Made by a program: the position numbers and the translations under genes. DNA of 64,000 nucleotides from an uncultured Verrucomicrobiota bacterium. GTDB lineage: Bacteria; Verrucomicrobiota; Verrucomicrobiia; Limisphaerales; VHCN01. Shown piece by piece: positions 119-26,356 of this stretch (position 1 is the stretch's first letter; each line of letters opens with the position of its first letter). Where the stretch lies: contig CAZPVD010000009.1 in NCBI GenBank assembly GCA_964589935.1, positions 88,969 to 152,968 on the forward strand. Direction: 5' to 3'. The notes beneath the pieces are model-generated. The model worked only from the letters and a program-made list of their open reading frames with translations, ran no database searches and was not told where the DNA came from.

Positions 119-1729
119 TCACTGCTGTTTCTTTTTTGCCGGCAATGGCTCGTGCGCCTGCTTGCCGGCTTTCCAGATGTCCGGCTCGACGGTGTTCTTC
201 TGCGGCACGCCGGGCGTGCTGCGTCCCTCGGCAACATATTTTTCCAGCAGCTTCGTCAAGCGCTCGACGACTTCGGGATTTTTGTCCTGCACGTTGTTTT
301 TCTCACCGATGTCGTAGCGTAAATCGTAAAGCTGCACGAGAGGCAGCCTGCTCGTGTCTGCCACACCGGGACGCGGCGCGCTCCAGCCGCCGGAGCCCGG
401 GCAGAGTTCAAATTTCCACGTGCCTTGCCGGATTGAGAACGAGCCGTTGATCGAATGATGCACGACGGCTTCGCGCAGCGGCTTGGTGTCCTTGCCGAGC
501 AGCGCGGGTAGGATGCTCACGCTGTCTTCGCCCGCGTTGTCGGGCAGTTTCACGCCGAGGATGTCCGCAACCGTCGCCATGAGGTCGGTGAGGCAGATGA
601 GCTGGTCGCTGCGCGAGTGCGGCGCAACGTGCCCCGGCCAGCGCGCGATGAACGGAATGCGATGTCCGCCGTCGAAAATGTCCGCCTTGTGCCCGCGAAA
701 GGCGTGGCTCGGATTGTGTCCCTTCGCCAGCAGCGCCGGGAAGTCGGCGTTGGGCGAGCAGCCGTTGTCGCTGGTGAAGATGAGCAGGGTGTTCTCAGAA
801 AGGCCCGAGTTGTCGAGCGCCGCCATCACTTCGCCGAGCGTCGCGTCCACTTGCATCACGAAGTCAGCGTAAGGGTTGATGCCGCTTTTGCCCTGCCATT
901 CCTTCGTCGGCAGGATCGGCGTGTGCGGCGCGTTGAGCGGCAGATAGAGGAAGAACGGTTTGCCGGCCTTCGCGTCCGCGGCGCGTTGCGAAATGTATTC
1001 GACGGCCTTGCGCGTGAGCGTCGGCAGCACATCCATCGCCTCGAACTCCGGCGCGGCCGGGCCTTCGCGTGTGAAGCCGGTCGGCTTGCCGAGCATCATG
1101 GAAAACTTTTTGTCCACGGTCGGCGCAACGGTGACGCGGTCATTTTCGATGAACGTGTAGGGCACCATGTCGAGCGACGCGCTGATGCCGAAGTAATAAT
1201 CGAAGCCGACGCTCGTCGGGCCATTGGCGATGCGCTGCATATAATCCACGTTCTTCACCTGCGCGGGCGTCTCGATGTTGAGTTCGCTCACGTCTTTGCC
1301 GGGCAACTTCACCCAGTCCATGCCGAGGTGCCATTTGCCGATGGCGCCGGTGTGATAGCCGTGTTGCTTGAGCAGCGATGCGACCGTGAGGCGGCCCGGT
1401 TCGATGAGGCGCGGGCTGAGGCCGCCGAGCACGCCGGACTGCAGGCGCGAGCGCCAGTTGTAACGGCCCGTCATGATGCCGTAGCGCGTCGGCGAACAGA
1501 CGGAGGAACTGGAATGTGCGTCGTGAAAGATCATTCCCTGCGCGGCGAGCCGGTCCATGTTCGGCGTCGCAATTTTTCCGTCGGGATTGAGCGCCTTCAC
1601 GTCGCCGTAGCCGAGGTCGTCGCAGAGGACATAAACAATGTTGGGCTTGGACGCCGCGTGGAGGGCAGGGGAGGCGAAAGCCAGCAATGACGTGGCGACC
1701 AGAAGGGATTTCAAGACGGTGTTTTTCAT
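119..1729 (-). CDS. Arylsulfatase, formylglycine type, secreted
   Basis: Signal peptide MKNTVLKSLLVATSLLAFASPALHAAS. Sulfatase signature CSPTRYGIMTGRY (C-x-P-x-R). ILCDDLGYGD N-terminal metal-binding motif. Start chosen at the internal M (MKNTVL) of the 545-aa ORF. The 5' end overlaps the HK stop by about 10 nt, which suggests co-transcription. Confidence 0.88.
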   Translation of the reverse strand: MKNTVLKSLLVATSLLAFASPALHAASKPNIVYVLCDDLGYGDVKALNPDGKIATPNMDRLAAQGMIFHDAHSSSSVCSPTRYGIMTGRYNWRSRLQSGVLGGLSPRLIEPGRLTVASLLKQHGYHTGAIGKWHLGMDWVKLPGKDVSELNIETPAQVKNVDYMQRIANGPTSVGFDYYFGISASLDMVPYTFIENDRVTVAPTVDKKFSMMLGKPTGFTREGPAAPEFEAMDVLPTLTRKAVEYISQRAADAKAGKPFFLYLPLNAPHTPILPTKEWQGKSGINPYADFVMQVDATLGEVMAALDNSGLSENTLLIFTSDNGCSPNADFPALLAKGHNPSHAFRGHKADIFDGGHRIPFIARWPGHVAPHSRSDQLICLTDLMATVADILGVKLPDNAGEDSVSILPALLGKDTKPLREAVVHHSINGSFSIRQGTWKFELCPGSGGWSAPRPGVADTSRLPLVQLYDLRYDIGEKNNVQDKNPEVVERLTKLLEKYVAEGRSTPGVPQKNTVEPDIWKAGKQAHEPLPAKKKQQ

Positions 1730-1745
1730 GGTGCGAGGCGGCAGC

Positions 1746-3332
1746 CTAGCAACCATGCAGTCGGATGTCCACTTGCAGTCCCGACGGCTGGCGGTTGTGC
1801 GCCGAGACGGTGCCCTGGCACGCCTCGACGCACGTCTTCACGATCGCGAGACCGAGGCCGATGCCGCCCGTGTCGCGGCTGCGCGACGCCTCAAGACGGT
1901 AAAACGGATCGAAGATTTGTCGCAGCGCCTTGTCCGGCACGCCGGGACCGCTGTCCGAAACACTGAAAACAATATCCTCGCCCTCGCGTCGCGCGGTGAT
2001 TGCAATCGGCCCGGCCTTCGTGCCGGCGTAGCGGACGGCATTGCGCACGAGGTTCGCAACGCCGCGCGCGAGCAGCTCCGGGTCGGCCATCGCGCGCAAC
2101 GACGGATCCACTTGCACGTGGACATTTGGCATTTCGTTCGCCTCGCGGTTCACGACGCGTCGCGCGAGCTCGGCGAGTTCGACGGGCCGCAGCCGCGTTT
2201 CCTTGGGCTTGAGGCTGGCCTTTGAAAACGCGAGCAACTCGTGCACGAGCGAGGACATCTCCTGGATTTCCTCGCGCAGTTGCTCGACATGCGCGTGCTG
2301 CGATTCGCCGGCGCGTTCCTCAAGAATGCCGAGCGCCATCTGGATGCGCGCGATGGGCGCGCACAGCTCGTGCGCCACGTCGCCGAGGAAGCGCTTCTGC
2401 CCCTTGACCTGCGCGTCGAGGCGCGCGGCCATCCGGTTGATGGACTGGCCGAGGTCACCCAACTCGTCGCGGCGTGTGTCATCCACCCGGCCGTCGAACT
2501 GCCCGTCCGCAATCTCATGCGCGGCGGATTGCGCGCGGCGGACTGTTCTCGTGATGCCGCGCACAAACGGAAGCCAGAACAGCGCGGACACGAGCGCCGC
2601 ACCACCGCCGAGAATCAGCCACGGCTTCGGATCGAACAGCAGCCCGCCGACTCGAATCGAATCCGACGCGATGAGCAGCGCGACCGGCTGGCGCGAGCCG
2701 GGACCCGCAAGCACCGGCACGCGCAGGCCGATCCAGTAGCGCACGGGGTTCGTGGAGCGCACGACAAACTTCGGATAATGCAAGCGGGGTGGAACGCCTT
2801 GATCCTTGCCCTCGCCTCCGCGCGGCGGGCCAAAATCATCCGGGCCGTCCCGGCGCGGCGGACGGTCTTCATCGAATGGCGGTCCTCCGCCACGACGAGG
2901 CGGCGGACCGTCGCGGAAATCGGGAGAGCCATCAAACTGCGGACGTTTTCGTTCCTCCGGCGGTGGGCCATTGGGTCCAGGCGGCGCGCCGGCGGGGCGC
3001 TTGTTGATTTCTTTTTCCACTTCTTCCGGCAGCGCACAGCGCGTGCCCGCGATCTGCGCGCCATCCGGGCGATACATCAGGAAATCCGCGCCATACCGCG
3101 CGCTGTAGCGCGCGAGCAACCGCTCCCAGTCCTCGGGTGGCGAGGCGCGCAGTTCGGTCACGAGGACTTCGGTGAGCGCCTCGATTCGGTCCTGCGCGGC
3201 GCCGAGCAGGATTGAACTGAAGCCCAGCCGGAACTGCTGCGCGACAAAGACCCAGCCCAGCACGACAAGAAGCAGCAGGTTCAAAAAAAACCAACCGAGT
3301 ATTTTTGCGAAGAGCGGAAAGCGTGGCTTCAT
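1746..3332 (-). CDS. Two-component sensor histidine kinase (CpxA/BaeS-like, HAMP-HisKA-HATPase)
   Basis: Two TM segments flank a periplasmic region containing a 70-aa Pro/Gly/Arg-rich stretch. H-box HELCAPIARIQ. C-terminal G-boxes (GGIGLGLAIVK). 4-nt ATGA overlap with the upstream RR gene. Confidence 0.9.
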   Translation of the reverse strand: MKPRFPLFAKILGWFFLNLLLLVVLGWVFVAQQFRLGFSSILLGAAQDRIEALTEVLVTELRASPPEDWERLLARYSARYGADFLMYRPDGAQIAGTRCALPEEVEKEINKRPAGAPPGPNGPPPEERKRPQFDGSPDFRDGPPPRRGGGPPFDEDRPPRRDGPDDFGPPRGGEGKDQGVPPRLHYPKFVVRSTNPVRYWIGLRVPVLAGPGSRQPVALLIASDSIRVGGLLFDPKPWLILGGGAALVSALFWLPFVRGITRTVRRAQSAAHEIADGQFDGRVDDTRRDELGDLGQSINRMAARLDAQVKGQKRFLGDVAHELCAPIARIQMALGILEERAGESQHAHVEQLREEIQEMSSLVHELLAFSKASLKPKETRLRPVELAELARRVVNREANEMPNVHVQVDPSLRAMADPELLARGVANLVRNAVRYAGTKAGPIAITARREGEDIVFSVSDSGPGVPDKALRQIFDPFYRLEASRSRDTGGIGLGLAIVKTCVEACQGTVSAHNRQPSGLQVDIRLHGC

Positions 3333-4219
3333 GCGTCGTCGGGATTGATGAGCATGTAGCCCGCGCTGCGGAGCGTGCGGATGAAGCGCGGGTTCTTCGG
3401 CTCGTCGCCGAGCTTCTTGCGCAACGCGGAGATGTGAACGTCAATCGAGCGGTCGAACACGTCGTAGTTCCGGTCGCGCACCTCGTCGAGCAACTGCTCG
3501 CGCGTCCGCACGCGACCGCGCGCGCGGGCGAGCGAGAGCAGCAGGTCGAACTCAACCGGCGTGAGGTTCAGCGGCTGGTCACCAAGCACGGCTGTGCGCG
3601 TGTTTGGGTTGACGCGCAGCGGGCCGACGACGGCCTCGGGTTCGCCACCGTCGCTGGGAGAATCTTTTGTCGCCGCGGTGAGCGTCGAGCGGCGCGTGAC
3701 AGCGCGCAGGCGCGCGAGCAGTTCGCGCGTGGAAAAAGTTTTCGGCAGATAATCGTCCGCGCCGATTTCGAGGCCGACGATGCGGTCGGCCTCCTCGCCG
3801 CGGCCGGTGAGCATGAGCACGGGCACGTCGGACTTGTGGCGGATTTGCTTGAGCGCCTCGAAGCCGTCGAGGCCGGGCATCATTACGTCGAGGATGATCG
3901 CGTGCCACGGCTCGGAGGTCGCGCGCGCGACGCCGTCCGCGCCGGTGTGGACCATCTCGACGGCGTAGCCGAGCGGCGTGAGATAATCTCGGATGAGCCG
4001 GCAGAGTTTTTTGTCGTCGTCCACGACGAGGATGCGCGTGGACGCCTGTGGCGTTGCAGCGGCGGACGGAGAGGAAAGTTGTCGTGGCGCGGACATTGGA
4101 TTTTCGTGGGCGATCTTCGCAGAATCGGGCGCGTTTGGGAACACCGGCTTCGCCGCCGCTTCGGGCGCGGGCGGCTTGCGGTTTCTTTTTCCAACCGTGA
4201 AGAGCGAGTGCAGGTTCAT
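3329..4219 (-). CDS. OmpR-family response regulator (REC + winged-helix)
   Basis: ILVVDDD...ILDVMMPGLDG...LTGRGEE...DDYLPKTF receiver motifs. C-terminal trans_reg_C (RFIRTLRSAGYML). Has an about 65-aa low-complexity N-terminal extension. Start set at MNLHSL; the ORF could extend to 4309. Confidence 0.85.
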   Translation of the reverse strand: MNLHSLFTVGKRNRKPPAPEAAAKPVFPNAPDSAKIAHENPMSAPRQLSSPSAAATPQASTRILVVDDDKKLCRLIRDYLTPLGYAVEMVHTGADGVARATSEPWHAIILDVMMPGLDGFEALKQIRHKSDVPVLMLTGRGEEADRIVGLEIGADDYLPKTFSTRELLARLRAVTRRSTLTAATKDSPSDGGEPEAVVGPLRVNPNTRTAVLGDQPLNLTPVEFDLLLSLARARGRVRTREQLLDEVRDRNYDVFDRSIDVHISALRKKLGDEPKNPRFIRTLRSAGYMLINPDDA

Positions 4220-4366
4220 GGGCGGAGCCGTCGGGCGAGTTTTCGCGCACTGGAATTCTTCAGCATGGCCGCAATGTAACGACTCGCGACGGGCGGCAGG
4301 CCAGAACATTTACCTCTGCTTAACAATTTCTTCCGCCCTCGAAATAATCTCTTAACAGGCGCGGCG
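4220..4366. promoter_or_regulatory. Divergent promoter region between the TCS operon and the RR-YHYH operon, with direct repeats CTTAACA (x2, about 33 nt apart)
   Basis: Intergenic sequence ...tctgCTTAACAatttcttccgccctcgaaataatctCTTAACAggcg... seen directly. It may be an OmpR-type direct-repeat binding site. No -35/-10 could be assigned with confidence. Confidence 0.3.
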
Positions 4367-4825
4367 TTGAATGTGGCCATGAAAGCTGAATTCAATTCTT
4401 CAAGCCGCCGCTGGCTGGTGGTGGATGACGAGCTCATAATCGCGGAAATGACGGCCCAGCTTCTGCGCCGTCTGAACCGTTCGGTGGAGGTGGTGCCCTT
4501 CAGCAACCCCGTGGAAGCATTGCGCGCCTTCGAGGCGGATCCCGAGTCGGTCGAGATGGTGCTTACCGACTGCAACATGCCGGAGCTGGACGGCATCAAA
4601 TTGACCCGCCTCATCCGGTCGCGCGGGCTGGGCACGAAGGTCGTTCTCATGAGCGCCGATTTTCCCGACTTGACCACGGATGAAATGCGATGGCTTGGAT
4701 TTTCTGCTGCGCTGGCGAAACCCTTTTCACTCGCCGACATTGAAACAGTTCTCCGGTCGGTGCTTTCTTTGGCGCCTCAACCCGACTTCGTGACGGACGG
4801 ACGTCTTCAACTTCAATCCGCATAA
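4367..4825 (+). CDS. Single-domain response regulator (CheY-like receiver), paralog A
   Basis: RRWLVVDDE...VLTDCNMPELDG...ALAKPF; no output domain. Ends 7 nt upstream of the YHYH gene. Paralogous to 8614..9060. Confidence 0.8.
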   Translation: MNVAMKAEFNSSSRRWLVVDDELIIAEMTAQLLRRLNRSVEVVPFSNPVEALRAFEADPESVEMVLTDCNMPELDGIKLTRLIRSRGLGTKVVLMSADFPDLTTDEMRWLGFSAALAKPFSLADIETVLRSVLSLAPQPDFVTDGRLQLQSA

Positions 4826-4832
4826 ATTTTTC

Positions 4833-6602
4833 ATGCGCCTTGCACCTTTTTTATTTCCGAATCGGCCTGTAGCGCTGGTCGTGCTGTTCGGGATGACGTT
4901 CACCGCCGCGGCGCAGACCACTGACCCGCGCGTCGCTTCGTGGCTCACCACTTACTCCGGCAAATACGCGCGCATCTACGGGACCGACGCCGACAAGACT
5001 TCCGGCGCGGCCGTCACCACATGGAGCAACGGCACGCAGACGCAGTCGTTGCCCGCCTACTGCGGCATCCAGGAGGTTTCGTATTCGACGGACTGGGTTT
5101 ATTTCCGCTCAACGGGACTCGGCAGCCACGTCATGGGGCCGTGGTATCTGAACGCCGGCCGCACGACTATTTTTCCGAACCTGCCGAAAAACACGGCGAC
5201 GTTCTACCGCATCCCGCGAAATCCAACCGTGCCTGTGACAAAGACGCTCACGGGCCTCGGTGCCATCGGCTATTTCGTGGACGGCGTGGCGATGTTCGAC
5301 AGCCGCGATGGTTATGTTTGGACAGGCACCACCGAGTCCGGCATGGGCACCGGCTACTGGAATCGCGATGCTTACGTGAACGAAAGCATCACGTTCGATC
5401 CTGGCTACGCGCATCAGGAGAACACCGGCACGCATCATTATCACGCGAACCCCATCGCGTTGCGCTACCTGCTTGGCGACAACGTCACGTTCAACTCTTC
5501 GACGAAGACTTACTCCGAGAATGCCGCCGCGCCGACGAAGCACTCGCCCGTTCTCGGCTGGGTGCGCGACGGTTATCCAGTCTATGGGCCTTACGGCTAC
5601 GCGAGCGCGATGAACTCCAACAGCGGCGTGCGGCGCATGGTCAGCGGTTACGTTGTGCGCAATGGCCAGAACGGCACGCAAAACCTCACCACCGCCGGGC
5701 GCACGACGATTCCGCAATGGGCCGTGCGCGCTTACAGCGTGTCCGCCAGCCAAAGCGGGCCGAGTGTCTCGACCACGTATCCGCTCGGTCGCTACATGGA
5801 GGACAACGATTACCTCGGCGACCTCGGCAAGACGCAGGGCACGGACTTCGACCTCGACGAATATAACGGCCGCTTTTGCGTGACGCCGGAATTTCCCGGC
5901 GGCACTTACGCTTACTTCGTCGCCATCAACGCCAGCGGCATTCCTGTGTTTCCCTACAACATCGGCCGCGCCTTTTACGGCAACCCCACCGGCGCGATGG
6001 TCGCCTCGCTCACCGAAACAGTGACGACGAATTTTGTTGGCGGTGCAAGCTCGCCCCTCACGGTCAATTCAACCGCAGTCAGCGGCGGCACGGTCACGCT
6101 TGTATGGAGTTCTGTTGAAGGCGGCAGCTACCGCGTTGAATCCGCCTCGGCGCTCACGAACTGGACAACGAAGGTTGCGAGCGTCAGCGCGGCGACCAAC
6201 GCCGTCGCAACGCAATCCGCCACGAGCACGAGCGGCACGAAAGAATTCTACCGCGTCGCCCTTACCGCCGTCGCCAGCTATGACACCGCAGGCAGCGGCG
6301 GTGGCGGTGGCGGCGGCGGCACGAGCGCCGTTGCGCCGGGAGGCAGCGCGAGCCGCGGCACATCAGTCACGGTGACCATCACGCTTCCGACTTCGCCGCC
6401 GCAGCCACCGGCGAATCTCGTGCCGACCAGCGTCACGCTTGCGGGCACGATCACCGGCACCGCCATTTCGCGACCGAGCGCCGGCACGGTGCAGGCCACC
6501 TTTGTGATCCCTTCGAATGCGTCCACTGGCGCGCAAAACGTCGTGGTCGTGTTCAGCCCCGCGCCGACCTACACGCTGACGGGAGGCTTCACGATCAATT
6601 GA
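4833..6602 (+). CDS. Secreted YHYH-motif protein (PF14240-like) with C-terminal FN3/Ig-like domains and a poly-Gly linker
   Basis: Signal peptide. Motif NTGTHHYHANP. FN3-like segment (LTVNSTAVSGGTVTLVWSSVEGGSYRVESASALTNW). GGGGGGGG run. C-terminal beta-rich Ig-like domain. Family assignment is from motif memory, not a search. Confidence 0.7.
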   Translation: MRLAPFLFPNRPVALVVLFGMTFTAAAQTTDPRVASWLTTYSGKYARIYGTDADKTSGAAVTTWSNGTQTQSLPAYCGIQEVSYSTDWVYFRSTGLGSHVMGPWYLNAGRTTIFPNLPKNTATFYRIPRNPTVPVTKTLTGLGAIGYFVDGVAMFDSRDGYVWTGTTESGMGTGYWNRDAYVNESITFDPGYAHQENTGTHHYHANPIALRYLLGDNVTFNSSTKTYSENAAAPTKHSPVLGWVRDGYPVYGPYGYASAMNSNSGVRRMVSGYVVRNGQNGTQNLTTAGRTTIPQWAVRAYSVSASQSGPSVSTTYPLGRYMEDNDYLGDLGKTQGTDFDLDEYNGRFCVTPEFPGGTYAYFVAINASGIPVFPYNIGRAFYGNPTGAMVASLTETVTTNFVGGASSPLTVNSTAVSGGTVTLVWSSVEGGSYRVESASALTNWTTKVASVSAATNAVATQSATSTSGTKEFYRVALTAVASYDTAGSGGGGGGGGTSAVAPGGSASRGTSVTVTITLPTSPPQPPANLVPTSVTLAGTITGTAISRPSAGTVQATFVIPSNASTGAQNVVVVFSPAPTYTLTGGFTIN

Positions 6603-6625
6603 TCCGCCGCCGAAGCCGCGCCCCA

Positions 6626-8536
6626 ATGAAACCAATTTCAAATCACAAGCAACGGTTTGCGCGGGCGCGCGCCGCCGGAGCGCTGTGTGCGGGGCTTTTC
6701 TTCGTCGCGGTCAATACGAGTGTTGCAGTTACGCTGAATGTCCGCGTCGCTGCCCGCTTCAACGACGCGCCACTCGTGCTTGATTCACTCGTTAACACGA
6801 CCGCGGCGGGACAGGCCGTTTCCGTGACGCGGTTGGATTTTCTGTTGTCAAACTTTGCCCTGCATGAAGCCGGCGGCGGTTGGACGGAGCGCACCAACAC
6901 GTTTGCCTATGTCAGCGTGCGCGAGGGGCGGACGACGTTTTCCGTGGAGAATGTTCCAGCGGGAAGTTACGACCGCATCCGTTTTCACGTCGGGCTAGAA
7001 CCCGCGATCAATCACAGCGACCCCGCGAAGTTTCCCGCCGCGCATCCGCTCAACGCCGTCTTGAACGGCCTGCATTGGAATTGGCAGGGTGGCTACGTGT
7101 TTCTCGCGATGGAGGGCCGCTGGCGCCTGCCGGACGGCTCGCTGGGCGGCTACTCTCACCACATCGCGAATGACGCGCGACTGATGACTGTGTCGCTGCC
7201 CGTCGCTCTCTCGCTGCCCCGCGATGCCGCGCTCGATCTGGCCTTGCACGTGGATCGCATCTGGAGCGGCAAGTCCGCGATCAAACTCAGCCCTGAAGCC
7301 GTCTCGACGCATTCACGCGAAGGCGACGTGCTCGCGGCGCAACTGGCTGAGAACATTCAGGCCGCATTCGCCGTCGGCGTTGCCGAGCCGCGCGTCGCGG
7401 GAAAGTCAGACGAGCCATTTGAGTTTCGTCCGCCGCCGCCCCGGTTCGGAAGACCTCCGCCACTTCCGCCACCGTTCGCGCGGGAACGCGAACCGAGCGT
7501 TGCGTTGCCCAAAGGCACGACGCCTTATCGCCTGACGTTCGGGCGGCAGTTTCCAATTCCCGATTTGCCGCGCGACAATCCGCTGACGGAGCAAGGCGTC
7601 GCGCTCGGGCGACAGTTGTTCAACGATCCGATCCTTTCGATCAACGGCAAGCAATCATGCTCGTCGTGCCATCAAGCGGACGCGGCTTTCACCGACAAGG
7701 GTCGCGCCGCGAGCCTCGGTGCCGAGGGACAGGCCGGAACGCGCAACGCGATGCCGCTCTTCAACCTCGCGTGGAACCGCTCGTTTTTCTGGGACGGTCG
7801 CGCACGCACGCTGCGCGAGCAGGTGCTCATGCCGATCCAAAATCCCATCGAGATGCACGAATCGCTGACGAACGTGGTAAGAAAGCTTGAAAACTCAGCG
7901 TCAAAAAACTCCACAAATTATCCCGCGCTCTTTGCGCGCGCGTTCGGCTCGCAAGAGATCGCGGCCGAGCGCATCGCAATGGCGCTGGAGCAATTTCTCG
8001 TCACGCTCGTCAGCGACGATTCCAGGTTCGACCGCGTGATGCAGGGACGCGAGCAGCCGAGCGAGGATGAGCGTCGCGGCTTCGAGCTGTTCAACACCGA
8101 ATTCGATCCGCGGCGAGGCTTGTTTGGCGCGGATTGTTTTCACTGTCACGGCGGACCGTTCTTCACCAACCACCGTTTCGCCAACAACGGCCTCGATGCG
8201 GAGCCGCGCGACACGGGCCGGCTTGAAGTGACCAAGAATGAGCATGACCGTGGGCTGTTCGCCGTGCCGTCATTGCGCAACGTGGCGTTGACCGCGCCCT
8301 ATATGCACGACGGACGCTTCAAGACGCTCGAAGAAGTCGTCGAGCACTACAGCACCGGTGTGCGGCGCAGCGCGACGCTCGACCCGAACCTCGCGAAGCA
8401 TCCCGTGCAGGGTCTCCAGCTTTCCGTGGAGGACAAGCGCGCTCTCATGGCGTTCTTGCGCATGCTCACGGACGAATCGCTGTCGCAACGCAACATGGCG
8501 AAGTCCGATCCTGATTTCCGCTCCAGTGGGCGGTAG
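6626..8536 (+). CDS. Fusion protein: N-terminal domain of unknown function (about 300 aa) + C-terminal di-heme cytochrome c peroxidase (CCP/MauG family)
   Basis: Two CxxCH heme motifs (CSSCHQAD; CFHCHGGPFF). CCP-like FNDPILS, PSLRNVALTAPYMHDG. Pro-rich linker FEFRPPPPRFGRPPPLPPPF. Signal peptide. The 4-nt overlap (ATGA) is with the long ORF-track start at 6599; the annotated start 6626 lies 24 nt downstream of the upstream stop. Confidence 0.8.
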   Translation: MKPISNHKQRFARARAAGALCAGLFFVAVNTSVAVTLNVRVAARFNDAPLVLDSLVNTTAAGQAVSVTRLDFLLSNFALHEAGGGWTERTNTFAYVSVREGRTTFSVENVPAGSYDRIRFHVGLEPAINHSDPAKFPAAHPLNAVLNGLHWNWQGGYVFLAMEGRWRLPDGSLGGYSHHIANDARLMTVSLPVALSLPRDAALDLALHVDRIWSGKSAIKLSPEAVSTHSREGDVLAAQLAENIQAAFAVGVAEPRVAGKSDEPFEFRPPPPRFGRPPPLPPPFAREREPSVALPKGTTPYRLTFGRQFPIPDLPRDNPLTEQGVALGRQLFNDPILSINGKQSCSSCHQADAAFTDKGRAASLGAEGQAGTRNAMPLFNLAWNRSFFWDGRARTLREQVLMPIQNPIEMHESLTNVVRKLENSASKNSTNYPALFARAFGSQEIAAERIAMALEQFLVTLVSDDSRFDRVMQGREQPSEDERRGFELFNTEFDPRRGLFGADCFHCHGGPFFTNHRFANNGLDAEPRDTGRLEVTKNEHDRGLFAVPSLRNVALTAPYMHDGRFKTLEEVVEHYSTGVRRSATLDPNLAKHPVQGLQLSVEDKRALMAFLRMLTDESLSQRNMAKSDPDFRSSGR

Positions 8537-8539
8537 GCG

Positions 8540-8576
8540 GGCTGGTGTGAAAGTTGTGTGTCCACCGGCCCGCCTG
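8540..8576 (+). terminator. Hairpin immediately after the CCP-fusion stop (GCGGGCTGGTG...CCACCGGCCCGC)
   Basis: Imperfect inverted repeat seen in the sequence, followed by an A/T-poor tail. Could be a partial terminator or an mRNA processing site. Confidence 0.3.
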
Positions 8577-8613
8577 AACCTTTGATGACAATGCGCAATC
8601 AACAAAACAAATC

Positions 8614-9060
8614 ATGAGTGCACCGTTTTACACCGAACCCACACGGCGCTGGATGGTCGTGGACGACGAAGAGACTTACCTGCAAATCATGGTGCTGGTT
8701 CTGGAATGTCTTGGCGGCGCCGAAGTCCGCGGGTTCACCTCGCCTCGTGCGGCACTGGAGGCGCTCGCCGAGGCGCCGGGTGAATTTGAACTCATCGTGA
8801 CCGACCGTCGAATGCCGGAGATTGACGGCCTCGAATTCGCGCAGCTCATCCGCGCGTGGGTGCCGGATGCAAAGGTCATTCTCGCCACAGCGGATTGTTC
8901 CGGTCTGTCAGACGAACTAGCGCGGCGGCTCGGCCTTTCTGCGGTCCTGGCAAAACCCTTCAAGCCGGGCGCTCTCGAAACGGCTGTCCGCGCCGCACTC
9001 GCGGAGCGGGCCGGAGACGGTTACGCTGCCCGGAACAGCACTCTGGCTTGCGCGGCATAA
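8614..9060 (+). CDS. Single-domain response regulator (CheY-like receiver), paralog B
   Basis: RRWMVVDDE...IVTDRRMPEIDG...VLAKPF. Alignable over its full length with 4367..4825. Confidence 0.8.
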   Translation: MSAPFYTEPTRRWMVVDDEETYLQIMVLVLECLGGAEVRGFTSPRAALEALAEAPGEFELIVTDRRMPEIDGLEFAQLIRAWVPDAKVILATADCSGLSDELARRLGLSAVLAKPFKPGALETAVRAALAERAGDGYAARNSTLACAA

Positions 9061-9095
9061 CCGGGACAAATGGGCTAACAGCGACCGAAATCACA

Positions 9096-11102
9096 ATGAA
9101 CCTCATCAGCAAATCGTGCCCCTCTCTGTCCGCAACCGCACAACGGAACGGCGGCCTCGCGCTCCTCATCGCAACAGCCATCACGGGACTAACTCATTTT
9201 GCGGAGGCACACGTCATCGGCGACGCCGCACATGATGGCCGCGAAGCATCTTATGACTTCAACGTGCGCCCGCCGACGCGGGTTCTTCTGCGCGCTCCCG
9301 CCGATGGTTCGGTGATTCTTGCCCGAAGCAACGATTCCGATGATGACGGGCGTTCCGCAGGCGCGTGTGGCGCTCCTGCGATCAAGGCCGATGTGATGGC
9401 AAAGGCGTTTGCCGCATTCGCGCCGCGCGTGAAGACGCACTACGACGAAAGGTATCTCTTTGTCGAATCCGACGGCTTGCCCACGCACAACATGATGGTG
9501 GGCATCCGCAACTGGCAGCAGCAGGTGCCGCTGCCGCAGGCGTATCGCGGTGGGAACGCCTTTCGCCTTCCGCTTGAGCCGGTGCTCGCGGCGAACCCCG
9601 TGTTGGCGCGGAACAACCTTTTCCGCGGCGCGATTGCGCTGGCCGTGAACGGTGTGCCGATTTTCAACGCGCTCAATAATCGTGGCGAGGATTCGTTCAA
9701 GATCGGCGAACTCGACCAGTGGGGCGGCCACTGCGGGCGCGCGGACGATTATCATTATCACGCTGCGCCGCTCCACTTGCAGGAAGCGGCCGGCGCAGGG
9801 CGGCCCATCGCGTTTGCGCTCGACGGTTTTCCGATTTACGGGCTGACCGAGCCGGACGGCGCGCCGGTCGCGAAACTCGACGAACTCAACGGCCACTTCG
9901 ATAAAATCGGAAACTATCACTACCACGGCACGAAGGAATATCCCTATATCAACGGCGGCCTGCGCGGCGAAGTCACCGTGCGCGACGGTCAGGTGGACCC
10001 GCAGCCGCATGCACAGCCGGTTCGCGCGGCGGGCCAACCGTTGCGCGGCGCGGTCATCACAGATTTTTCCTCACCGTCACCGGACCGGCATCGCCTCATC
10101 TACGCGCTGAACGGGCGGACGCACACGATTGATTACGCTGTGGCGGACGGAGCAGTTTCGTTCGCATTCGACGGCGGCGCGGGCCAGACGTTTGCGCAAA
10201 ACACAGAGCAGCGAAGCACGGAGCGGCCGCTCGACCCGTTGTATGTCCGGCCGCAATTTGCCGCGGCAACGGCGGGCACGAATCAGGTTTCCATCACCGT
10301 CGAGGGGGAGTTTCGCGTGATTCGAGCGAACGGTTTGCCCGATCACGTGACGGGCCAGTTCCCCGGACGCAACAACCCGAACCGCATTTCGGCGCAGAGC
10401 TACGACTTCCGTGTGCCACTCAAGCCGCAAGTCGCTGCGAAAACGACCGCGCTCGGAATGTATCCGTTCGGCGTGGCGGTCAACGGCGTGGTGTTCGACC
10501 CCGGCGCGGCGGAGTGGTGGCGCGGCGACCGCGACTGGCAATACGAGCCGCTCTTTCTCGAAGGCAGACTCGGCGCGGACCAGAGCAACGCGCACGTCCA
10601 GCCGACCGGTGCGTATCACTATCATGCCATCCCGACGGCGTTGCTTGACAGGCTCACCGGCGGCAGGCCCATGCCCGCGCTCCTCGGCTGGGCGGCGGAC
10701 GGCTTTCCGATTTACTGCCCGTGGGATTACAGCGACGCGAAGAGCACGAACAGCGTGCTGAAGAAAATGAAATCATCCTACCGCGTGAAACAGGGCGTGC
10801 GATCCGGCGGCCCCGGCGGAAAATACGACGGCACGTTCCTCGCCGATTTTCAATACGTCGCCGGCTCGGGCGATCTCGACGAATGCAACGGCCGTTTCGG
10901 CATCACACGCGAATTTCCCGAAGGCACGTATCATTACATTCTGACCGAGGACTGGCCGTTCATCCCGCGGTTGTTTCGGGGCACGCCGAGTTCGAGCTTC
11001 TTCCGCCACGGTCCGCCGGGCGGACAGCGTTTCGGCGGGCCGGGTGGACCCAAAGGCCCGCCGTCGAAGGGGTTTCCACCGCCGCGTCCGTTCAATCCGT
11101 GA
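9096..11102 (+). CDS. Secreted protein with three to four YHYH repeats (PF14240-like) and a Pro/Gly-rich C-terminal tail
   Basis: DYHYHAAP, NYHYHGTKEYPY, AYHYHAIP, GTYHYILTED. Signal/anchor MNLISKSCPSLSATAQRNGGLALLIATAITGL. Tail GPPGGQRFGGPGGPKGPPSKGFPPPRPFNP. The start was moved from the 8856 ORF start to an internal ATG because the upstream part overlaps the RR gene. Confidence 0.7.
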   Translation: MNLISKSCPSLSATAQRNGGLALLIATAITGLTHFAEAHVIGDAAHDGREASYDFNVRPPTRVLLRAPADGSVILARSNDSDDDGRSAGACGAPAIKADVMAKAFAAFAPRVKTHYDERYLFVESDGLPTHNMMVGIRNWQQQVPLPQAYRGGNAFRLPLEPVLAANPVLARNNLFRGAIALAVNGVPIFNALNNRGEDSFKIGELDQWGGHCGRADDYHYHAAPLHLQEAAGAGRPIAFALDGFPIYGLTEPDGAPVAKLDELNGHFDKIGNYHYHGTKEYPYINGGLRGEVTVRDGQVDPQPHAQPVRAAGQPLRGAVITDFSSPSPDRHRLIYALNGRTHTIDYAVADGAVSFAFDGGAGQTFAQNTEQRSTERPLDPLYVRPQFAAATAGTNQVSITVEGEFRVIRANGLPDHVTGQFPGRNNPNRISAQSYDFRVPLKPQVAAKTTALGMYPFGVAVNGVVFDPGAAEWWRGDRDWQYEPLFLEGRLGADQSNAHVQPTGAYHYHAIPTALLDRLTGGRPMPALLGWAADGFPIYCPWDYSDAKSTNSVLKKMKSSYRVKQGVRSGGPGGKYDGTFLADFQYVAGSGDLDECNGRFGITREFPEGTYHYILTEDWPFIPRLFRGTPSSSFFRHGPPGGQRFGGPGGPKGPPSKGFPPPRPFNP

Positions 11103-11232
11103 GGTCGCGGCTCGTCTGACTTCGGCGAAACAAATCGAACCTTGCCCGTTCACCAGGAGCGGGAGTAAATGTGCCGCGACGCGCGTAGAGCCGCGCACTG
11201 TGGAAAGGCGTTCACGCGGGATATGATGGGTT

Positions 11233-12864
11233 ATGGACGACGTGACTCTTCCGAGAGATCCGAATCAGCCGCAGGCCGCGCCTGCGGTTCCCGTTGCGGG
11301 CGCGACTCCCGATAGTGCTGGCGGCGAGGGGAGGTCCGGCACGTTTGGGCGCGACCTTTCCGGCGCGACGCTTGGAGATTACCGGCTCGTGCGGAAAATT
11401 GCCGAGGGTGGGATGGGCGAAGTTTATGAGGCCATTCAACTCAACCTCGACCGGCGGGTCGCGTTGAAGCTCGTCACCGACCGCTTTGCGTCGCAGTCGC
11501 AGTTTCTCGTCCGCTTCGAGCGCGAGGCCAAGGCCGCGGCGGCGCTGAACCATCCGAACATCGTCCAGGTTTATGACTTCGGGAAGGCGGAGGGACTGTT
11601 CTACCTCGTGATGGAATTCGTGGACGGCGTGGATTTGGCCGAATACGTGAAGGGCCGCGGAAAACTTTCCGTCACCGAGGCGCTGGGGTTTATCGAGCAG
11701 GCGGCCCGTGGCCTGAACGCAGCCGCCGCGCAGGCGATCATCCATCGCGACGTCAAGCCCGCGAATCTCCTGCTCACCAACGACGGCATCGTCAAGGTGT
11801 CCGACCTTGGTCTTGCGAAAAAGCTCACCGACGAGTCCGAAGTGACGATGACGAGTGCCTGTCTGGGTTCGCCGCACTTCCTTGCGCCCGAGCAGGCCGC
11901 CGACGCGCGCCGCGTGGATCATCGCGCCGACATTTATTCGCTGGGCATCACGCTGTTGTTTCTGCTCACGGGCAAACATCCGTTCGACGGCGGTTCGGCC
12001 CTCACTGTGCTGCTCGCGCACGCGCAGAAGCCGCTGCCGACGGGCGCGGAACTCGGCGTGGCTTTGCCGGACGCGGTCGAATCGCTGATCCGCCGAATGT
12101 CGGCGAAAAATCCAGAAGATCGCTATCAGGATTACGCCTCGCTGTTCGCCGACGTGGCGCGCGTGAAAGCGGGCTTTGAGCCTGCCGAGAAGTTCGCGGC
12201 GACACCCGCTGCAAATCAGCGCCGCCACAAGTTGAAAGTGGCGCTTGCTTCGGTCGCAGGTGTCGCCGTCGCGGGAGCGTTGATTTCGATGTTCTGGCCG
12301 AAACCGCCGCTGCCGGCAAACCAGCCACAGCAATCCGCGCCGGTTGATCGTCGATTTGATGGAGGGCAGCCATTCGGGAGGCGTCCGGGCCCGGATCAAT
12401 TCGATGACCCACCCGGTTTTCAGGGCGGCAAGGAAGGGCCACCGGGACGCAGGCCGATGCGCCTGCCGTTTCCGCCGCCGCCGCAGAAGGAATTCAACCC
12501 GCTTCCCGACGGGCCGATTCCGGCCATGATTGCGATGGCCGACCGATACGCCGCGACGAACGCGCAGGAGTGCGTCAAAATCATTGACCGCTACTTTCAA
12601 ATCCAGCACAAGGCCGCGGGCACACAGTGGGAGGAGGAGATTGACAGGAAGCTGTCGCTCGCGATCGAAGCGCACAAAAAAGCGACGCAAGAGATCATCA
12701 ACAACCTGCAAGCCCGCATGACGAGATTCCTGCGCGAAAACAAGCCGCAAGATGCCTTCGATGTCTGGCGGGAATTCCCGACACGTCTGCGGACACCTGA
12801 AGCCGACCAGCAGATCGGGCAAATCCTCCAGCGCGAGCTGCCTCCAGAGTTCCAGCCGAATTAG
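11233..12864 (+). CDS. Eukaryotic-type Ser/Thr protein kinase with a single TM and a periplasmic Pro-rich/helical tail
   Basis: GxGxxG-like loop (EGGMGEVYEA), VALK, HRDVKPANLL, DLG, APE motifs. TM VALASVAGVAVAGALISMFW. Then RRFDGGQPFGRRPGPDQFDDPPGF... Confidence 0.88.
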   Translation: MDDVTLPRDPNQPQAAPAVPVAGATPDSAGGEGRSGTFGRDLSGATLGDYRLVRKIAEGGMGEVYEAIQLNLDRRVALKLVTDRFASQSQFLVRFEREAKAAAALNHPNIVQVYDFGKAEGLFYLVMEFVDGVDLAEYVKGRGKLSVTEALGFIEQAARGLNAAAAQAIIHRDVKPANLLLTNDGIVKVSDLGLAKKLTDESEVTMTSACLGSPHFLAPEQAADARRVDHRADIYSLGITLLFLLTGKHPFDGGSALTVLLAHAQKPLPTGAELGVALPDAVESLIRRMSAKNPEDRYQDYASLFADVARVKAGFEPAEKFAATPAANQRRHKLKVALASVAGVAVAGALISMFWPKPPLPANQPQQSAPVDRRFDGGQPFGRRPGPDQFDDPPGFQGGKEGPPGRRPMRLPFPPPPQKEFNPLPDGPIPAMIAMADRYAATNAQECVKIIDRYFQIQHKAAGTQWEEEIDRKLSLAIEAHKKATQEIINNLQARMTRFLRENKPQDAFDVWREFPTRLRTPEADQQIGQILQRELPPEFQPN

Positions 12865-12896
12865 CGGATTGACCCACGGAGCGCCTGCCTGCTGGC

Positions 12897-13676
12897 TTAC
12901 TTGAGTGACTTCGGCGGTTTTATGGATGGAGGCGGCTCCTTTGCTTTTGCCTGCGCGGCCGTCCATCGCGATTCCCAATCTGCCCACGATGAAGCCCACG
13001 CTTCACCAGCGAAATTTTTCCTCGCCGTCGGAAGGAGTTCTTCGAACGCCTTAAGTTCGTGCTGAGAAGTTTTCTTGTCGCCCCACTTCAGCGCGGATTC
13101 GAGGAGGTTCAGCCGGTTCTCAGGAAAATCCGGCGCGACTTCGACAGCCTTCGTCAAATACATGCGGGCCTTGCTTCTGCTGCCGACGCTCGCGGGCCAG
13201 CCGGGCGCGTCGCGATAGAGCAGGCCGAGGCAGCGATCCGGGCCGGCGTGATCAAAGGCGGCGTCGAGTTCGCGCGTGAGTTTGAACTGCCGCTCCATGT
13301 CATCCACGAGCGGCAGAGCGCCAAGCATCTTGGTGCGCGCGAGCTGGCCAAGATTCATTGCTAGATAATAGTGTCCGGCAGCGAGTTTCGGCTCACGGGT
13401 AAGGAGCGGACGGCACGCGCCGATGCCCTCGACCGCGAGCGTGGCGCGCTGCGTGTCGTTGGCCGCGAATTCCGCCCGGTCGAAGCACGCTCGTCCAAAC
13501 TGCCACGCAGCCTCGGCGTTGTTCGTGTCCGCGAGAAAGCGCACGCGCGCCTGCTGGTAGCTTTTTTCGGCAAAGGCGATGAATTGAGCCGGGCCGGCGG
13601 GCGTCTGGGTTTGCGCCTGAATTGCAGCAACACCCGCCGCGAGCATGGCCGCGGCCAGCACGCAAAACCGCCTCAT
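12897..13676 (-). CDS. Secreted TPR-like repeat protein
   Basis: Signal peptide MRRFCVLAAAMLAAGVAAIQA. Helical repeat composition (AEAAWQFGRACFDRAEF; HYYLAMNLGQLA). No enzymatic motifs. Confidence 0.55.
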   Translation of the reverse strand: MRRFCVLAAAMLAAGVAAIQAQTQTPAGPAQFIAFAEKSYQQARVRFLADTNNAEAAWQFGRACFDRAEFAANDTQRATLAVEGIGACRPLLTREPKLAAGHYYLAMNLGQLARTKMLGALPLVDDMERQFKLTRELDAAFDHAGPDRCLGLLYRDAPGWPASVGSRSKARMYLTKAVEVAPDFPENRLNLLESALKWGDKKTSQHELKAFEELLPTARKNFAGEAWASSWADWESRWTAAQAKAKEPPPSIKPPKSLK

Positions 13677-13727
13677 TGGCGGGGAATTATGTGTTGCCAT
13701 GAGATTGTTCATCCCTATAGTGGCCAA

Positions 13728-13931
13728 GTGCGATTGAATCGGTTACAAGTTTTGCTGGCAATCCTCGTGTTCGCCCTCGTGGCGGGGACGGGTTGCGGCG
13801 GCTTTAGCACAAGTCAGTCCGTGTCTCCGGCGATGTTCTTTATACCGGGCCTGCGGATTCAAAACGTCCCCCGTCCACCCGCCCCGATCACACCCGTATC
13901 CGCCCCCGCAGGCGAACCGGTTCAGTCCTGA
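13728..13931 (+). CDS. Possible small secreted/lipoprotein ORF (about 67 aa) immediately upstream of hpnH
   Basis: Candidate GTG start. Hydrophobic N-terminus LQVLLAILVFALVAGTGC followed by a Pro-rich tail. Part of the 13371..13931 track ORF. Weak evidence; coding potential not verified. Confidence 0.25.
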   Translation: MRLNRLQVLLAILVFALVAGTGCGGFSTSQSVSPAMFFIPGLRIQNVPRPPAPITPVSAPAGEPVQS

Positions 13932-13945
13932 TTCAACTTTCAACT

Positions 13946-15373
13946 ATGCGCTTCCCCCTTGCGCTGACGGTCAAAATCGCCCGTCACATCATCAAACACA
14001 AACTTCGCAAGACGCCGAAGTTTGCCATGGTTTTGCAGCTCGAACCGTTGCACACGTGCAACCTAACCTGCACCGGCTGCGGACGCATCCGCGAATACTC
14101 CACTTCGCTCAAGGACATGGTGCCGTTGGAGCAGTGCCTCGCCGCCGCGCAGGATTGCGATGCGCCGATGGTCTCGATTTGCGGCGGTGAGCCGCTGATT
14201 TATCCGAAGATTGAGGAGCTGGTCGCCGGGCTGCGCGAGCAGGGCCGCATTATTTACATCTGCACGAACGCAATGTTCATGCGGAAGAAGATGCGCGACT
14301 ACATGGCCGCCGTCTTCACGCCGGAGATGGAAGCGAAGCTCCAGCAGCTCGTCGCCGAGAAGCTCGTCACCGAGAAAGAAGCCGAGGCCATCCGCAACGC
14401 CGATGCCGCCGCGAAGGCGAAAGTCGTCATCAAGCCCAGCAAGTGGATGTATTGGAATGTCCATGTGGACGGCTTGGAATACACGCACGACCTCATCGTC
14501 GAGCGCGAGGGCGTCTTCAAGGAATGCGTCGCCGCCATCAAGATGGCGAAGATTCTCGGTTACCAGACTGCGACGAACACGACCGTTTACAAGGAGACCG
14601 ACGTGCAGGAGATCGAGGACATGTTCAAGTTCCTCTCCTCGCTCGACGTGGACGGCCACACGATTTCCCCCGGCTACGACTACGACGCCGCGAAGAAGGA
14701 CATGGTCAAGCGCCTCGGTCGCGACCCGAAGGAATTCTTCCTCACGCGCGACATGACGCGCGCGAAGTTTAAGGACATCGAGAAGTGGGGCAAGGCATTC
14801 ACCATCTTCGGCACGCCGGTTTATCAGGAGTTCCTCGCCGGCAAACGCGAGCTGACCTGCACCGCGTGGGCCATCCCGACTTACAACGTGAAGGGCTGGA
14901 AAGCGCCGTGCTATCTGATGACCGACGGCCATTACCCGACCTACGCCGAGATGCTCGGCACCGTGAAGTGGGAGAAATACGGCGTGGTGGACGGCATCGC
15001 GCGCGACTCGCGCTGCGAGCATTGCATGGTCCATTGCGGCTACGATCCCAGCGGGGCGTTGAGCACCAAGCCGCGCGACACGTGGATCAACATGAAATAC
15101 AACTTTGGCGCGAAGCCGAAGCCGTATGCCGCCAGCGCCGACTTGGAGAAACGCGCGTTCAACGGCGTGACCATCGGCAAAGGCCACCTCGCCGAGGCCA
15201 AGGCTGCCATCAACCCCGCCGCCAGCGCGCGCGGTGCCTTTTCCCGCAAGGAAGAAGAACACGACCACGCTCCCGCCACAGGCGGCTCGTGCGGCTCTGG
15301 TGACACTTCCCAACGCGACGATTTGATCGCGAAAATTCGTGACGCGAAGAAGATTGAAGTGAAGGCCGAGTAG
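13946..15373 (+). CDS. hpnH: Adenosylhopane synthase, radical SAM (HpnH), with an internal insertion and C-terminal extension
   Basis: CNLTCTGCGRI radical-SAM motif. N-terminus (KFAMVLQLEPLHTCNL...PMVSICGGEPL...YICTNA) closely matches remembered HpnH sequences. At 475 aa it is about 90 aa longer than typical HpnH. Confidence 0.75.
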   Translation: MRFPLALTVKIARHIIKHKLRKTPKFAMVLQLEPLHTCNLTCTGCGRIREYSTSLKDMVPLEQCLAAAQDCDAPMVSICGGEPLIYPKIEELVAGLREQGRIIYICTNAMFMRKKMRDYMAAVFTPEMEAKLQQLVAEKLVTEKEAEAIRNADAAAKAKVVIKPSKWMYWNVHVDGLEYTHDLIVEREGVFKECVAAIKMAKILGYQTATNTTVYKETDVQEIEDMFKFLSSLDVDGHTISPGYDYDAAKKDMVKRLGRDPKEFFLTRDMTRAKFKDIEKWGKAFTIFGTPVYQEFLAGKRELTCTAWAIPTYNVKGWKAPCYLMTDGHYPTYAEMLGTVKWEKYGVVDGIARDSRCEHCMVHCGYDPSGALSTKPRDTWINMKYNFGAKPKPYAASADLEKRAFNGVTIGKGHLAEAKAAINPAASARGAFSRKEEEHDHAPATGGSCGSGDTSQRDDLIAKIRDAKKIEVKAE

Positions 15374-15407
15374 TCAACCTTCACGACGCGGTTTCCCCAA
15401 ACGAGCA

Positions 15408-23164: not shown

Positions 23165-23333
23165 TCGCTTTCTACCTTTCGATCGGACAATCATGTCTGG
23201 CGCATTGAACTTTTACAAGCGCTCGGCAAGGAAGACTTGATTGCCACTTCCCTGTTGTGCCCGGACCTTCTGTCGTTAACATTCCCTTAGCTCGACTGAA
23301 CAGGCTTTGGCCCCATTGCGTCCATTCCACCCG

Positions 23334-26303: not shown

Positions 26304-26356
26304 AGCCTTTTGACGCTACAGTGCGTCCAACACAGCGGCGCTGATTTTGTTGAGCC

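Follow-up and report, generated by a model that had tools for sequence, protein, structure and literature searches.

The window considered in this study is a stretch of 64,000 nucleotides (nt) from an uncultured Verrucomicrobiota bacterium (GTDB lineage Bacteria; Verrucomicrobiota; Verrucomicrobiia; Limisphaerales; VHCN01), positions 88,969 to 152,968 of the forward strand of contig CAZPVD010000009.1 (GenBank assembly GCA_964589935.1). It contains a gene in which a domain of the MbnP family and a di-haem domain resembling MbnH are joined in one polypeptide. An original prediction, made from the letters of the sequence, had supposed an N-terminal domain fused to a di-haem cytochrome c peroxidase, possibly an MbnP-MbnH-like pair, and the gene is indeed a single open reading frame (ORF) on the plus strand, starting at 6599 (TTG) or 6626 (ATG) and ending at 8536, with both Pfam domains in the one frame 6626-8536. 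From the ATG it encodes 636 amino acids (aa), a sequence identical to that of database protein P0001. From N- to C-terminus there follow a signal peptide, the MbnP domain, a disordered Pro-rich linker and the di-haem domain. The motifs picked out earlier are all present: WNWQGGYVFLAMEGRW (aa 151-166, nt 7076-7123), which contains the WxW motif of the MbnP family, HVDRIW (aa 208-213), the Pro-rich linker, and two CxxCH motifs (CSSCH at aa 345-349, CFHCH at aa 504-508). Four haem-binding Cys and one in the signal peptide are the only Cys residues of the protein. Attachment of c-type haem needs export.

The N-terminal domain matches the Pfam MbnP family (PF20243) with an E-value of 1.7e-28 and a score of 100.3 bits, the gathering cut-off being 27, and its aa 36-214 align with positions 3-177 of the 189 in the hidden Markov model. 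A profile of 33 fused N-terminal domains, compared by HHalign with nine canonical MbnPs, gave 99.5% probability and an E-value of 3e-21. Against the PDB, the domain alone found the MbnP structure 7L6G marginally (phmmer, E 0.21), and a profile of the domain found it at E 6e-5 over part of the domain; the fold is that of 7L6G. I aligned the fused N-terminal domains (MAFFT) with stand-alone relatives from Bacteroidota and with canonical MbnPs. All three groups have W151, W153, E163 and H179 in common, W151 being invariant throughout, and the residues invariant in 118 fused homologues are W151, W153, E163, H179, H229, R231 and D234. The abstract of a 2021 PNAS paper on MbnP reportedly says that the first Trp of WxW becomes kynurenine.

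The C-terminal domain matches CCP_MauG (PF03150) with an E-value of 3.4e-55 (187 bits), and the two c-type haem motifs lie within that fold. By sequence, MbnH (6E1C, E 2.7e-48) is its top match in the PDB, and a Foldseek search with the AlphaFold2 model placed 6E1C first and MauG second. The comparison with the NCBIfam models of MbnP (TIGR04052, 'four-Cys motif protein') and MbnH (TIGR04039), which the original prediction had proposed, came out as expected in one respect and short in another: MbnH is the best family for the di-haem domain (237 bits, with MauG next at 179), but the score stays below the cut-off of 362.85, as does that of the N-terminal domain, a weak match over the WxW region (41.1 bits against 140). 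Invariant in the 118 fused homologues are both CxxCH motifs, W389, Q399, P403, E409, a PYMHDG block and Y575, the last being invariant in fused and separate forms alike. A gapless alignment of aa 385-411 with MauG 89-115 provides equivalents of MauG Trp93, Gln103, Pro107 and Glu113, and an equivalent of Tyr294 is also found; the roles of these MauG residues are reflected in PDB entry titles and in PMC6405878. The bis-Fe(IV) state of MauG is linked to its Tyr-ligated haem and to the Trp between the haems (PMC6405878). Since W389, Q399, P403 and E409 align with MauG, and Y575 with MauG and MbnH, the domain is predicted to have an intact peroxide-reactive haem pocket together with a MauG-type His/Tyr haem, and by sequence it is a MauG-type domain, closest to MbnH. 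With PF20243 at one end of the protein, and TIGR04039, 6E1C and the Tyr ligand as MbnH-clade signatures at the other, the supposed pair in one polypeptide is borne out, and no unrelated family lays claim to the N-terminal domain.

One might nonetheless regard the protein as a plain periplasmic cytochrome c peroxidase that detoxifies H2O2 and carries an accessory beta-sandwich domain. Canonical di-haem peroxidases (Nitrosomonas europaea 1IQC, Pseudomonas aeruginosa 1EB7), whose function is to reduce H2O2 with small redox proteins as donors, share with it the core fold, the haem motifs, the inter-haem Trp and the distal-pocket residues. The catalytic Gln, Pro, Glu and Trp found family-wide are kept, and similarity to true peroxidases is substantial (1IQC, E 1e-43). 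Even a Tyr-ligated enzyme, BthA, still turns over H2O2 (PMC6405878). Canonical peroxidases, however, have no MbnP domain, and their electron-transfer haem is ligated by His and Met, where the fusion has the invariant Tyr575. The alignment with 1IQC ends at T257, opposite H574, and Tyr575 takes the next position, which I take to be that of the axial ligand Met258. Against a plain peroxidase there is also the ranking of MbnH and MauG as top family and structure matches, and an N-terminal domain whose homology is specifically to MbnP and whose substrate motif is invariant. I hold this explanation to be very unlikely. The features of the fused gene and of its neighbours are collected in Table 1.

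Table 1. Features of the fused gene and its neighbourhood, in window coordinates. pLDDT, predicted local distance difference test; AF2, AlphaFold2.
Feature	Position	Strand	Evidence or remark
Fused MbnP-MbnH gene	6626..8536	+	ORF, both Pfam domains, identity to P0001
Predicted Sec signal peptide (MKPISNHKQRFARARAAGALCAGLFFVAVNTSVA)	6626..6727	+	Positively charged start, then hydrophobic helix; AF2 helix at aa 7-27
MbnP-fold domain, Cys-less variant, aa ~36-250	6731..7375	+	
WxW motif, W151-N-W153	7076..7084	+	Aligned to W-N-W of 7L6G; W151 is the predicted Trp-to-kynurenine site
His179, predicted copper ligand	7160..7162	+	Aligned to invariant His ('vHlGS') of canonical MbnPs and 7L6G; invariant in fused homologues
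His229 in invariant S-T-H-S-R motif, candidate third ligand	7310..7312	+	Opposite Met of canonical 'G-C-M' motif (MAFFT and HHalign agree)
Disordered Pro-rich interdomain linker (PRVAGKSDEPFEFRPPPPRFGRPPPLPPPFAREREPS...), aa ~255-300	7388..7525	+	pLDDT <50 at aa 259-286
MauG-type di-haem domain, nearest MbnH, aa ~306-621	7541..8488	+	
First haem motif C345-S-S-C348-H349, predicted five-coordinate peroxide-reactive haem	7658..7672	+	Invariant
Inter-haem W389 (= MauG Trp93); distal pocket Q399, P403, E409 (= MauG Gln103, Pro107, Glu113)	7790..7852	+	Invariant
Second haem motif C504-F-H-C507-H508, predicted six-coordinate haem	8135..8149	+	Invariant
Tyr575, predicted axial ligand of six-coordinate haem	8348..8350	+	Opposite MauG Tyr294 (chain numbering) and Tyr of MbnH 'IDIY'
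HAMP/HisKA histidine kinase, divergent	1746-3332	-	Pfam
OmpR-family regulator, divergent	3329-4309	-	Pfam
Stand-alone CheY-like receiver, first gene of putative operon	4367..4825	+	PF00072
YHYH-1 protein, 589 aa: signal peptide, YHYH core, two C-terminal Ig/FN3-like domains	4833..6602	+	One PF14240 domain, E 3e-40; AF2 pLDDT 82.7
Second stand-alone receiver, between fusion and YHYH-2	8614..9060	+	PF00072
YHYH-2 protein, 668 aa, tandem YHYH domains	9096..11102	+	PF14240 E 9e-83, matched in more than one stretch
Ser/Thr protein kinase downstream of YHYH-2	11233..12864	+	PF00069

The AlphaFold2 model of the whole protein, built from an alignment of the 118 fused homologues, has a mean pLDDT of 83.5 and a predicted template modelling score (pTM) of 0.81. 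The N-terminal domain, for which such a model had been suggested at the outset, is confidently folded, mostly with pLDDT above 90, and disorder is confined to aa 259-286 of the linker and to a few loops. Among homologues the linker varies in both length and composition, from 26 to 69 aa in the aligned segment, and the gap between domain envelopes is 2-31 aa in most other genomes. Similar low-complexity segments rich in Pro, Gly, Arg and Phe (PPPRFGRPPP, GGQRFGGPGGP, GGQPFGRRPGP and DGPPPRRGGGPPF) occur at four places: in the periplasmic loop (aa ~105-175) of the minus-strand kinase at 1746-3332, in the fusion linker at 7388-7525, in the C-terminal tail of YHYH-2 (9096-11102) and at aa ~385-425 of the Ser/Thr kinase at 11233-12864. 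They may be a shared interaction motif or, since the linker is not conserved in homologues, may simply reflect lineage-specific composition.

To place the gene among its relatives, I considered both proteins and genomic loci. A protein search returned 2192 clusters at E-values of 1e-5 or better, and each of the 120 best, inspected for domains, contains both Pfam domains; several clusters already bear the source name 'MbnP family protein' or 'cytochrome c peroxidase'. A scan of species-representative genomes found at least 596 stretches encoding a relative. The 80 best genomic loci were compared directly (loci are cited below by L numbers), and in 48 of them, from 48 independent genomes, a single uninterrupted ORF spans both domains, with linkers that are short and variable. 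Almost all fused loci are labelled Verrucomicrobiota, Chthoniobacter flavus Ellin428 for example, and the isolate Pedosphaera parvula Ellin514 also has a fused gene. In Bacteroidota loci and one Sumerlaeota locus, the MbnP-like and MbnH-like proteins are instead encoded by two genes, in the same order and a few bases apart, and at L052 the two ORFs are separate and overlap. A neighbour-joining tree built from the di-haem domains groups the fused genes together in a single clade, apart from one gene truncated at the end of its contig. This single clade, with pairs that lie adjacent and in the same order in Bacteroidota, fits a fusion that arose once, from an adjacent mbnP-mbnH pair, in the Verrucomicrobiota lineage. 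The fused form is the usual arrangement across Verrucomicrobiota, not a rarity.

These comparisons also dispose of the notion that the fusion is an artefact of assembly, frameshift or gene calling that runs two separate genes together. One may cite for it that related Bacteroidota genomes encode the parts separately, that the ORFs of L052 are distinct and overlap, and that L045 has an implausibly long stop-free frame. The frame in the window is nonetheless continuous, and the 48 uninterrupted ORFs (isolates Chthoniobacter flavus and Pedosphaera parvula included), the one fused clade and the 120 two-domain clusters refute the artefact reading, leaving it a negligible chance. The frame at L045 (7983-12923) is a curiosity in itself: its 1647 codons contain MbnP, YHYH and Sulfatase domains and a CCP_MauG domain that stops short of the Tyr-ligand region, and it could be either a larger fusion or an assembly or frameshift artefact of a metagenome-assembled genome.

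The architecture is abundant and already family-named in public annotation, and proteins of the MbnP/MbnH kind are themselves known; what is new is the fused, Cys-less, His-for-Met variant within a conserved genomic context. No fused MbnP-MbnH is described in the literature found by full-text searches, a coverage to which the primary MbnP papers do not belong.

The nearest characterized system is the MbnP/MbnH pair of Methylosinus trichosporium OB3b (7L6G and 6E1C; TIGR04052/TIGR04039, the 'metallo-mystery pair'). There, MbnH converts a Trp in the WxW motif of MbnP into Kyn174, and copper is bound by His, Met, Kyn and water (PMC11951088). The two systems are alike in gene order (P then H), in periplasmic location, in the WxW motif and conserved His of MbnP, and in the two CxxCH motifs, Tyr axial ligand and inter-haem Trp of MbnH. 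They differ in that here there is one polypeptide rather than two, both halves score below the NCBIfam equivalog cut-offs, and identity is about 20% to 7L6G for the N-terminal domain and 36-39% to 6E1C for the C-terminal. They differ in context as well: here no methanobactin operon or TonB-dependent transporter is nearby, and the neighbours are YHYH proteins, CheY-like receivers and a two-component system.

The adjacent pairs of Bacteroidota (e.g., L049, L051, L053-L080) show 35-55% identity to the window protein in the best tblastn segment. Their MbnPs fall, like those of the fusions, in the Cys-less subfamily, most of them (23 of 28) have His in column 229, and their di-haem partners have the same catalytic residues. 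Unlike the fusion, they are separate genes, keep a Met two residues before WxW and have no YHYH neighbour (the unfused pairs with YHYH being L052 and L077), and there is often an additional MbnH-like paralogue without the inter-haem Trp. This second paralogue, beside the MbnP/MbnH pair in L055, L056, L057, L065, L067, L069, L071-L073, L075 and L078, retains both CxxCH motifs and the Tyr ligand, and its inter-haem Trp is replaced by Arg in 9 of 12 cases and by Ser in 2 of 12. BthA has Ser257 at that position (PMC6405878).

MauG, the enzyme that acts on pre-methylamine dehydrogenase, is likewise a di-haem enzyme that oxidises Trp of a protein substrate via bis-Fe(IV). The product predicted here is kynurenine in a copper site, not tryptophan tryptophylquinone, and the substrate would be tethered. 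There is no counterpart of the surface residue Trp199 of MauG; Ala502 stands two residues before the second CxxCH.

By homology to the M. trichosporium pair and to MauG, I think it on balance probable that the fused protein is a self-maturing periplasmic copper-binding protein, whose tethered MauG-type domain would use H2O2 to convert Trp151 to kynurenine and so complete a copper site with His179 and probably His229. Exported by the Sec pathway, the MbnP-type domain would remain flexibly tethered to its maturase, the MbnH-type domain, and after export two c-type haems would be attached, at C345xxCH and C504xxCH. The five-coordinate haem (His349, with distal Gln399, Pro403 and Glu409) would react with H2O2, and a bis-Fe(IV) state would be shared with the His508/Tyr575 haem through Trp389. 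This oxidant could then turn Trp151, the first Trp of WxW, into kynurenine, in cis or between protomers. Kynurenine and His179 would form a Cu(I) site in which His229 appears to replace the canonical Met, giving Kyn/His/His. The fusion would act within an operon with the YHYH proteins and CheY-like receivers, beside a dedicated two-component system, and its role is probably periplasmic copper handling for, or together with, these partners. What the sequences and models themselves show is the identity of the domains, their fold, the conserved residues, the fusion and the gene order; haem loading, every chemical step up to copper binding, and the physiological role are inferred from homology and context.

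Several observations weigh against this proposal. In canonical MbnPs, four Cys and two Met columns are conserved. None of the four Cys is found in the fused family, and the mature N-terminal domain of this protein has no Cys at all. The Met column two residues before WxW is Leu149 here (Leu in 32 of 33 fused sequences), and the second, that of 'G-C-M', is His229 (His in 33 of 33). To these may be added the sub-cut-off equivalog scores of both halves and the surroundings of the gene. A Pfam scan of every neighbouring gene at 119-16883, and of ten larger ORFs from the rest of the window, found neither classical copper genes (CopC/D, PCuAC, Sco, TonB-dependent transporter) nor methanobactin genes (MbnA/B/C, MbnT). 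Matched against NCBIfam, the two-component system comes nearest to the CpxA/CpxR, BaeS and heavy-metal sensor families but falls short of every cut-off, and those models do not allow it to be classified as copper-sensing. Finally, the fused gene of Pedosphaera parvula Ellin514 has no YHYH neighbour. The absence of methanobactin biosynthesis and transport genes from the scanned ORFs leads me to reject a methanobactin operon, and a mobile element or plasmid context is rejected as well, the surrounding genes being ordinary chromosomal genes of the Planctomycetes-Verrucomicrobia-Chlamydiae (PVC) type.

Because of the sub-cut-off score, the lack of the four-Cys motif and the lack of the canonical conserved Met residues, the N-terminal domain is best placed as a divergent, Cys-less, His-for-Met subfamily of MbnP. 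Since it has neither the four Cys nor a Met at either canonical column, its metal site, and even its metal, may differ from those of canonical MbnP. It might be, then, that the domain is matured to kynurenine as proposed and that the Kyn/His/His site binds some other metal or oxidation state (Cu(II), Zn, Fe), or serves in redox chemistry or sensing instead of carrying Cu(I). Swapping a soft thioether ligand for imidazole shifts metal preference, and here Met is replaced at both conserved positions and all four Cys are lost. The absence of copper genes near the locus among the scanned ORFs is of a piece with this, as is the abundance of signalling genes at the locus (two CheY-like receivers, a two-component system, a Ser/Thr kinase), and the YHYH neighbours are predicted Zn hydrolases (PMC7824862). 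Against it stand MopE* and CorA of methanotrophs, which bind copper with exactly two His and a kynurenine (PMC11951088; PMC3423442; PMC3912023), so that the exchange of Met for His is fully compatible with copper. I consider a role other than Cu(I) carriage unlikely. With the canonical Met absent and an invariant His in its place, the alignment suggests a Kyn/His/His site on the MbnP fold, the ligand set of MopE* and CorA. Those proteins resemble the predicted one further in being encoded beside a di-haem peroxidase-like gene, CorB in the case of CorA (PMC3621798; PMC11951088). They are unlike it in that they are unfused and surface-associated or secreted, with fold and sequence unrelated to MbnP.

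The fused gene lies in a compact cluster, whose intergenic gaps are 7, 23, 77 and 35 nt, or, at the YHYH-1/fusion junction, a 4-nt overlap. The overlap arises with the alternative start: the TTG at 6599 overlaps the TGA stop of YHYH-1 (TTGA, 6599-6602), the ATG lying 27 nt further downstream, which would allow translational coupling. A promoter-like site is found upstream of the first receiver gene, at 4320-4348, though the evidence for it is weak. Both large genes flanking the fusion carry PF14240, in keeping with the YHYH proteins that the original prediction saw there. It had also called a fused form beside YHYH proteins unusual, and this did not hold: the arrangement is standard across Verrucomicrobiota. 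Of the 80 best loci, 48 are fused, and of the 40 fused loci with at least 2 kb of upstream sequence, 24 have a YHYH-1-type gene directly upstream on the same strand. On two contigs of more than 1 Mb, independently predicted genes annotated with Pfam follow this arrangement too. The divergent histidine kinase and OmpR-type pair is found beside the YHYH and fused genes in about 14 loci, as well as in L081 and L083. Downstream of the fusion there are homologues of YHYH-2 (L007, L012, L044, L050), of the receiver (L004, L007, L013, L017) and of the Ser/Thr kinase (L004, L012, L044, L050). Where the window has a receiver gene directly 3' of the fusion, L081 (11911-12558) and L083 (12122-12538) have a small protein with faint EF-hand-like matches.

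The one proposal encountered for the function of the YHYH domain predicts a Zn-dependent hydrolase in which a His triad and an Asp are conserved (PMC7824862), and the alignment of YHYH-1 proteins, with invariant H194, H202, H204 and H237 and several invariant Asp, is compatible with that prediction. The AlphaFold model of YHYH-1 is confident except for a loop (aa 185-195, pLDDT below 50) just before the invariant A-H-Q...H-Y-H motif; the model is compatible with a loop that becomes ordered only on metal binding.

Such close company raises the question of whether the di-haem domain chiefly oxidises Trp or Tyr of the co-encoded YHYH proteins, or whether these supply or use the peroxide, the MbnP-like domain then serving for docking or metal delivery. 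Enzymes of the MauG type do modify proteins separate from themselves. The synteny is close and is maintained in 24 of 40 loci, the genes of the window lying 23 nt apart or overlapping by 4 nt. YHYH also lies beside the unfused pair in L052 and L077, the stop-free frame of L045 holds both, and YHYH proteins possess invariant His, Tyr and Trp and the low-confidence loop by the HYH motif. Yet an upstream YHYH gene is absent from the other 16 of the 40 fused loci, as it is in P. parvula, and nothing found here supports modification of a YHYH protein. Within the fused N-terminal domain, moreover, the WxW Trp, His179 and His229 are invariant, a conservation best explained if that domain is itself matured. 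A YHYH protein as the chief substrate thus seems to me rather improbable.

Beyond the self-maturing protein itself, one might venture, as a tentative and rather unlikely extension, that the whole cluster is a hitherto unrecognised periplasmic metal-handling module of Verrucomicrobiota, in which a self-maturing Kyn/His/His site would load, regulate or oxidatively modify YHYH metalloproteins (elsewhere giant galactose-oxidase-like partners), under the control of a dedicated Cpx/Bae-like two-component system. If so, the widespread YHYH family (PF14240) would gain its first clue to function, and the natural enzyme-substrate fusion could be used to trap the MbnH-MbnP reaction complex.

The giant partners appear in fused loci without an upstream YHYH gene. 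There, a protein of 1575-2670 aa is encoded directly downstream of the fusion (L028, 9551-17560; L041, 9660-14702; L042, 4947-9671), with the domains Glyoxal_oxid_N, Kelch and GO-like_E_set, which are glyoxal- or galactose-oxidase-like, as well as CCP_MauG and a RoxA-like cytochrome c. As glyoxal and galactose oxidases are copper radical oxidases that produce H2O2, these neighbours give a second, independent hint of a link to copper and peroxide. The contig of Pedosphaera parvula Ellin514 (L082, 10001-16839; ABOX02000030.1) presents yet another arrangement, the fused gene being followed by four consecutive serpin genes.

The docking of MbnH and MbnP, the formation of kynurenine and the physiological role of the pair are open questions of a recently defined system (PMC11951088). 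A natural, phylum-wide fusion supports, in Rosetta-stone fashion, the idea that the two proteins act on each other. It also holds enzyme and substrate tethered together at a ratio of 1:1, which lends itself to structural and mechanistic studies, and Chthoniobacter flavus and Pedosphaera parvula are available as cultured strains. The His in place of Met and the absence of disulfides suggest that the MbnP fold has converged on a site of the MopE*/CorA type. The conserved pairing with YHYH is a testable lead for a domain family of no known function.

Outside the cluster, a few other features of the window may be recorded. Immediately beside it, at 12897-16883, lie three lipid-related genes: one resembling the sterol transporter outer-membrane protein BstC (weakly, with 94 bits against a cut-off of 350), a radical S-adenosylmethionine (radical-SAM)/DUF3463 gene, presumably similar to the adenosylhopane synthase HpnH, and a B12-binding radical-SAM gene. 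Together they suggest a locus for hopanoid or sterol-type lipids. Further on, at 23307-27787, is a pair typical of the PVC superphylum (PSCyt1/PSCyt2/PSD1 and DUF1501), followed on the minus strand, up to 32595, by genes for an NHL-repeat protein of 1020 aa and a secretin. A strong positive GC skew between 28 and 34 kb accompanies these genes.

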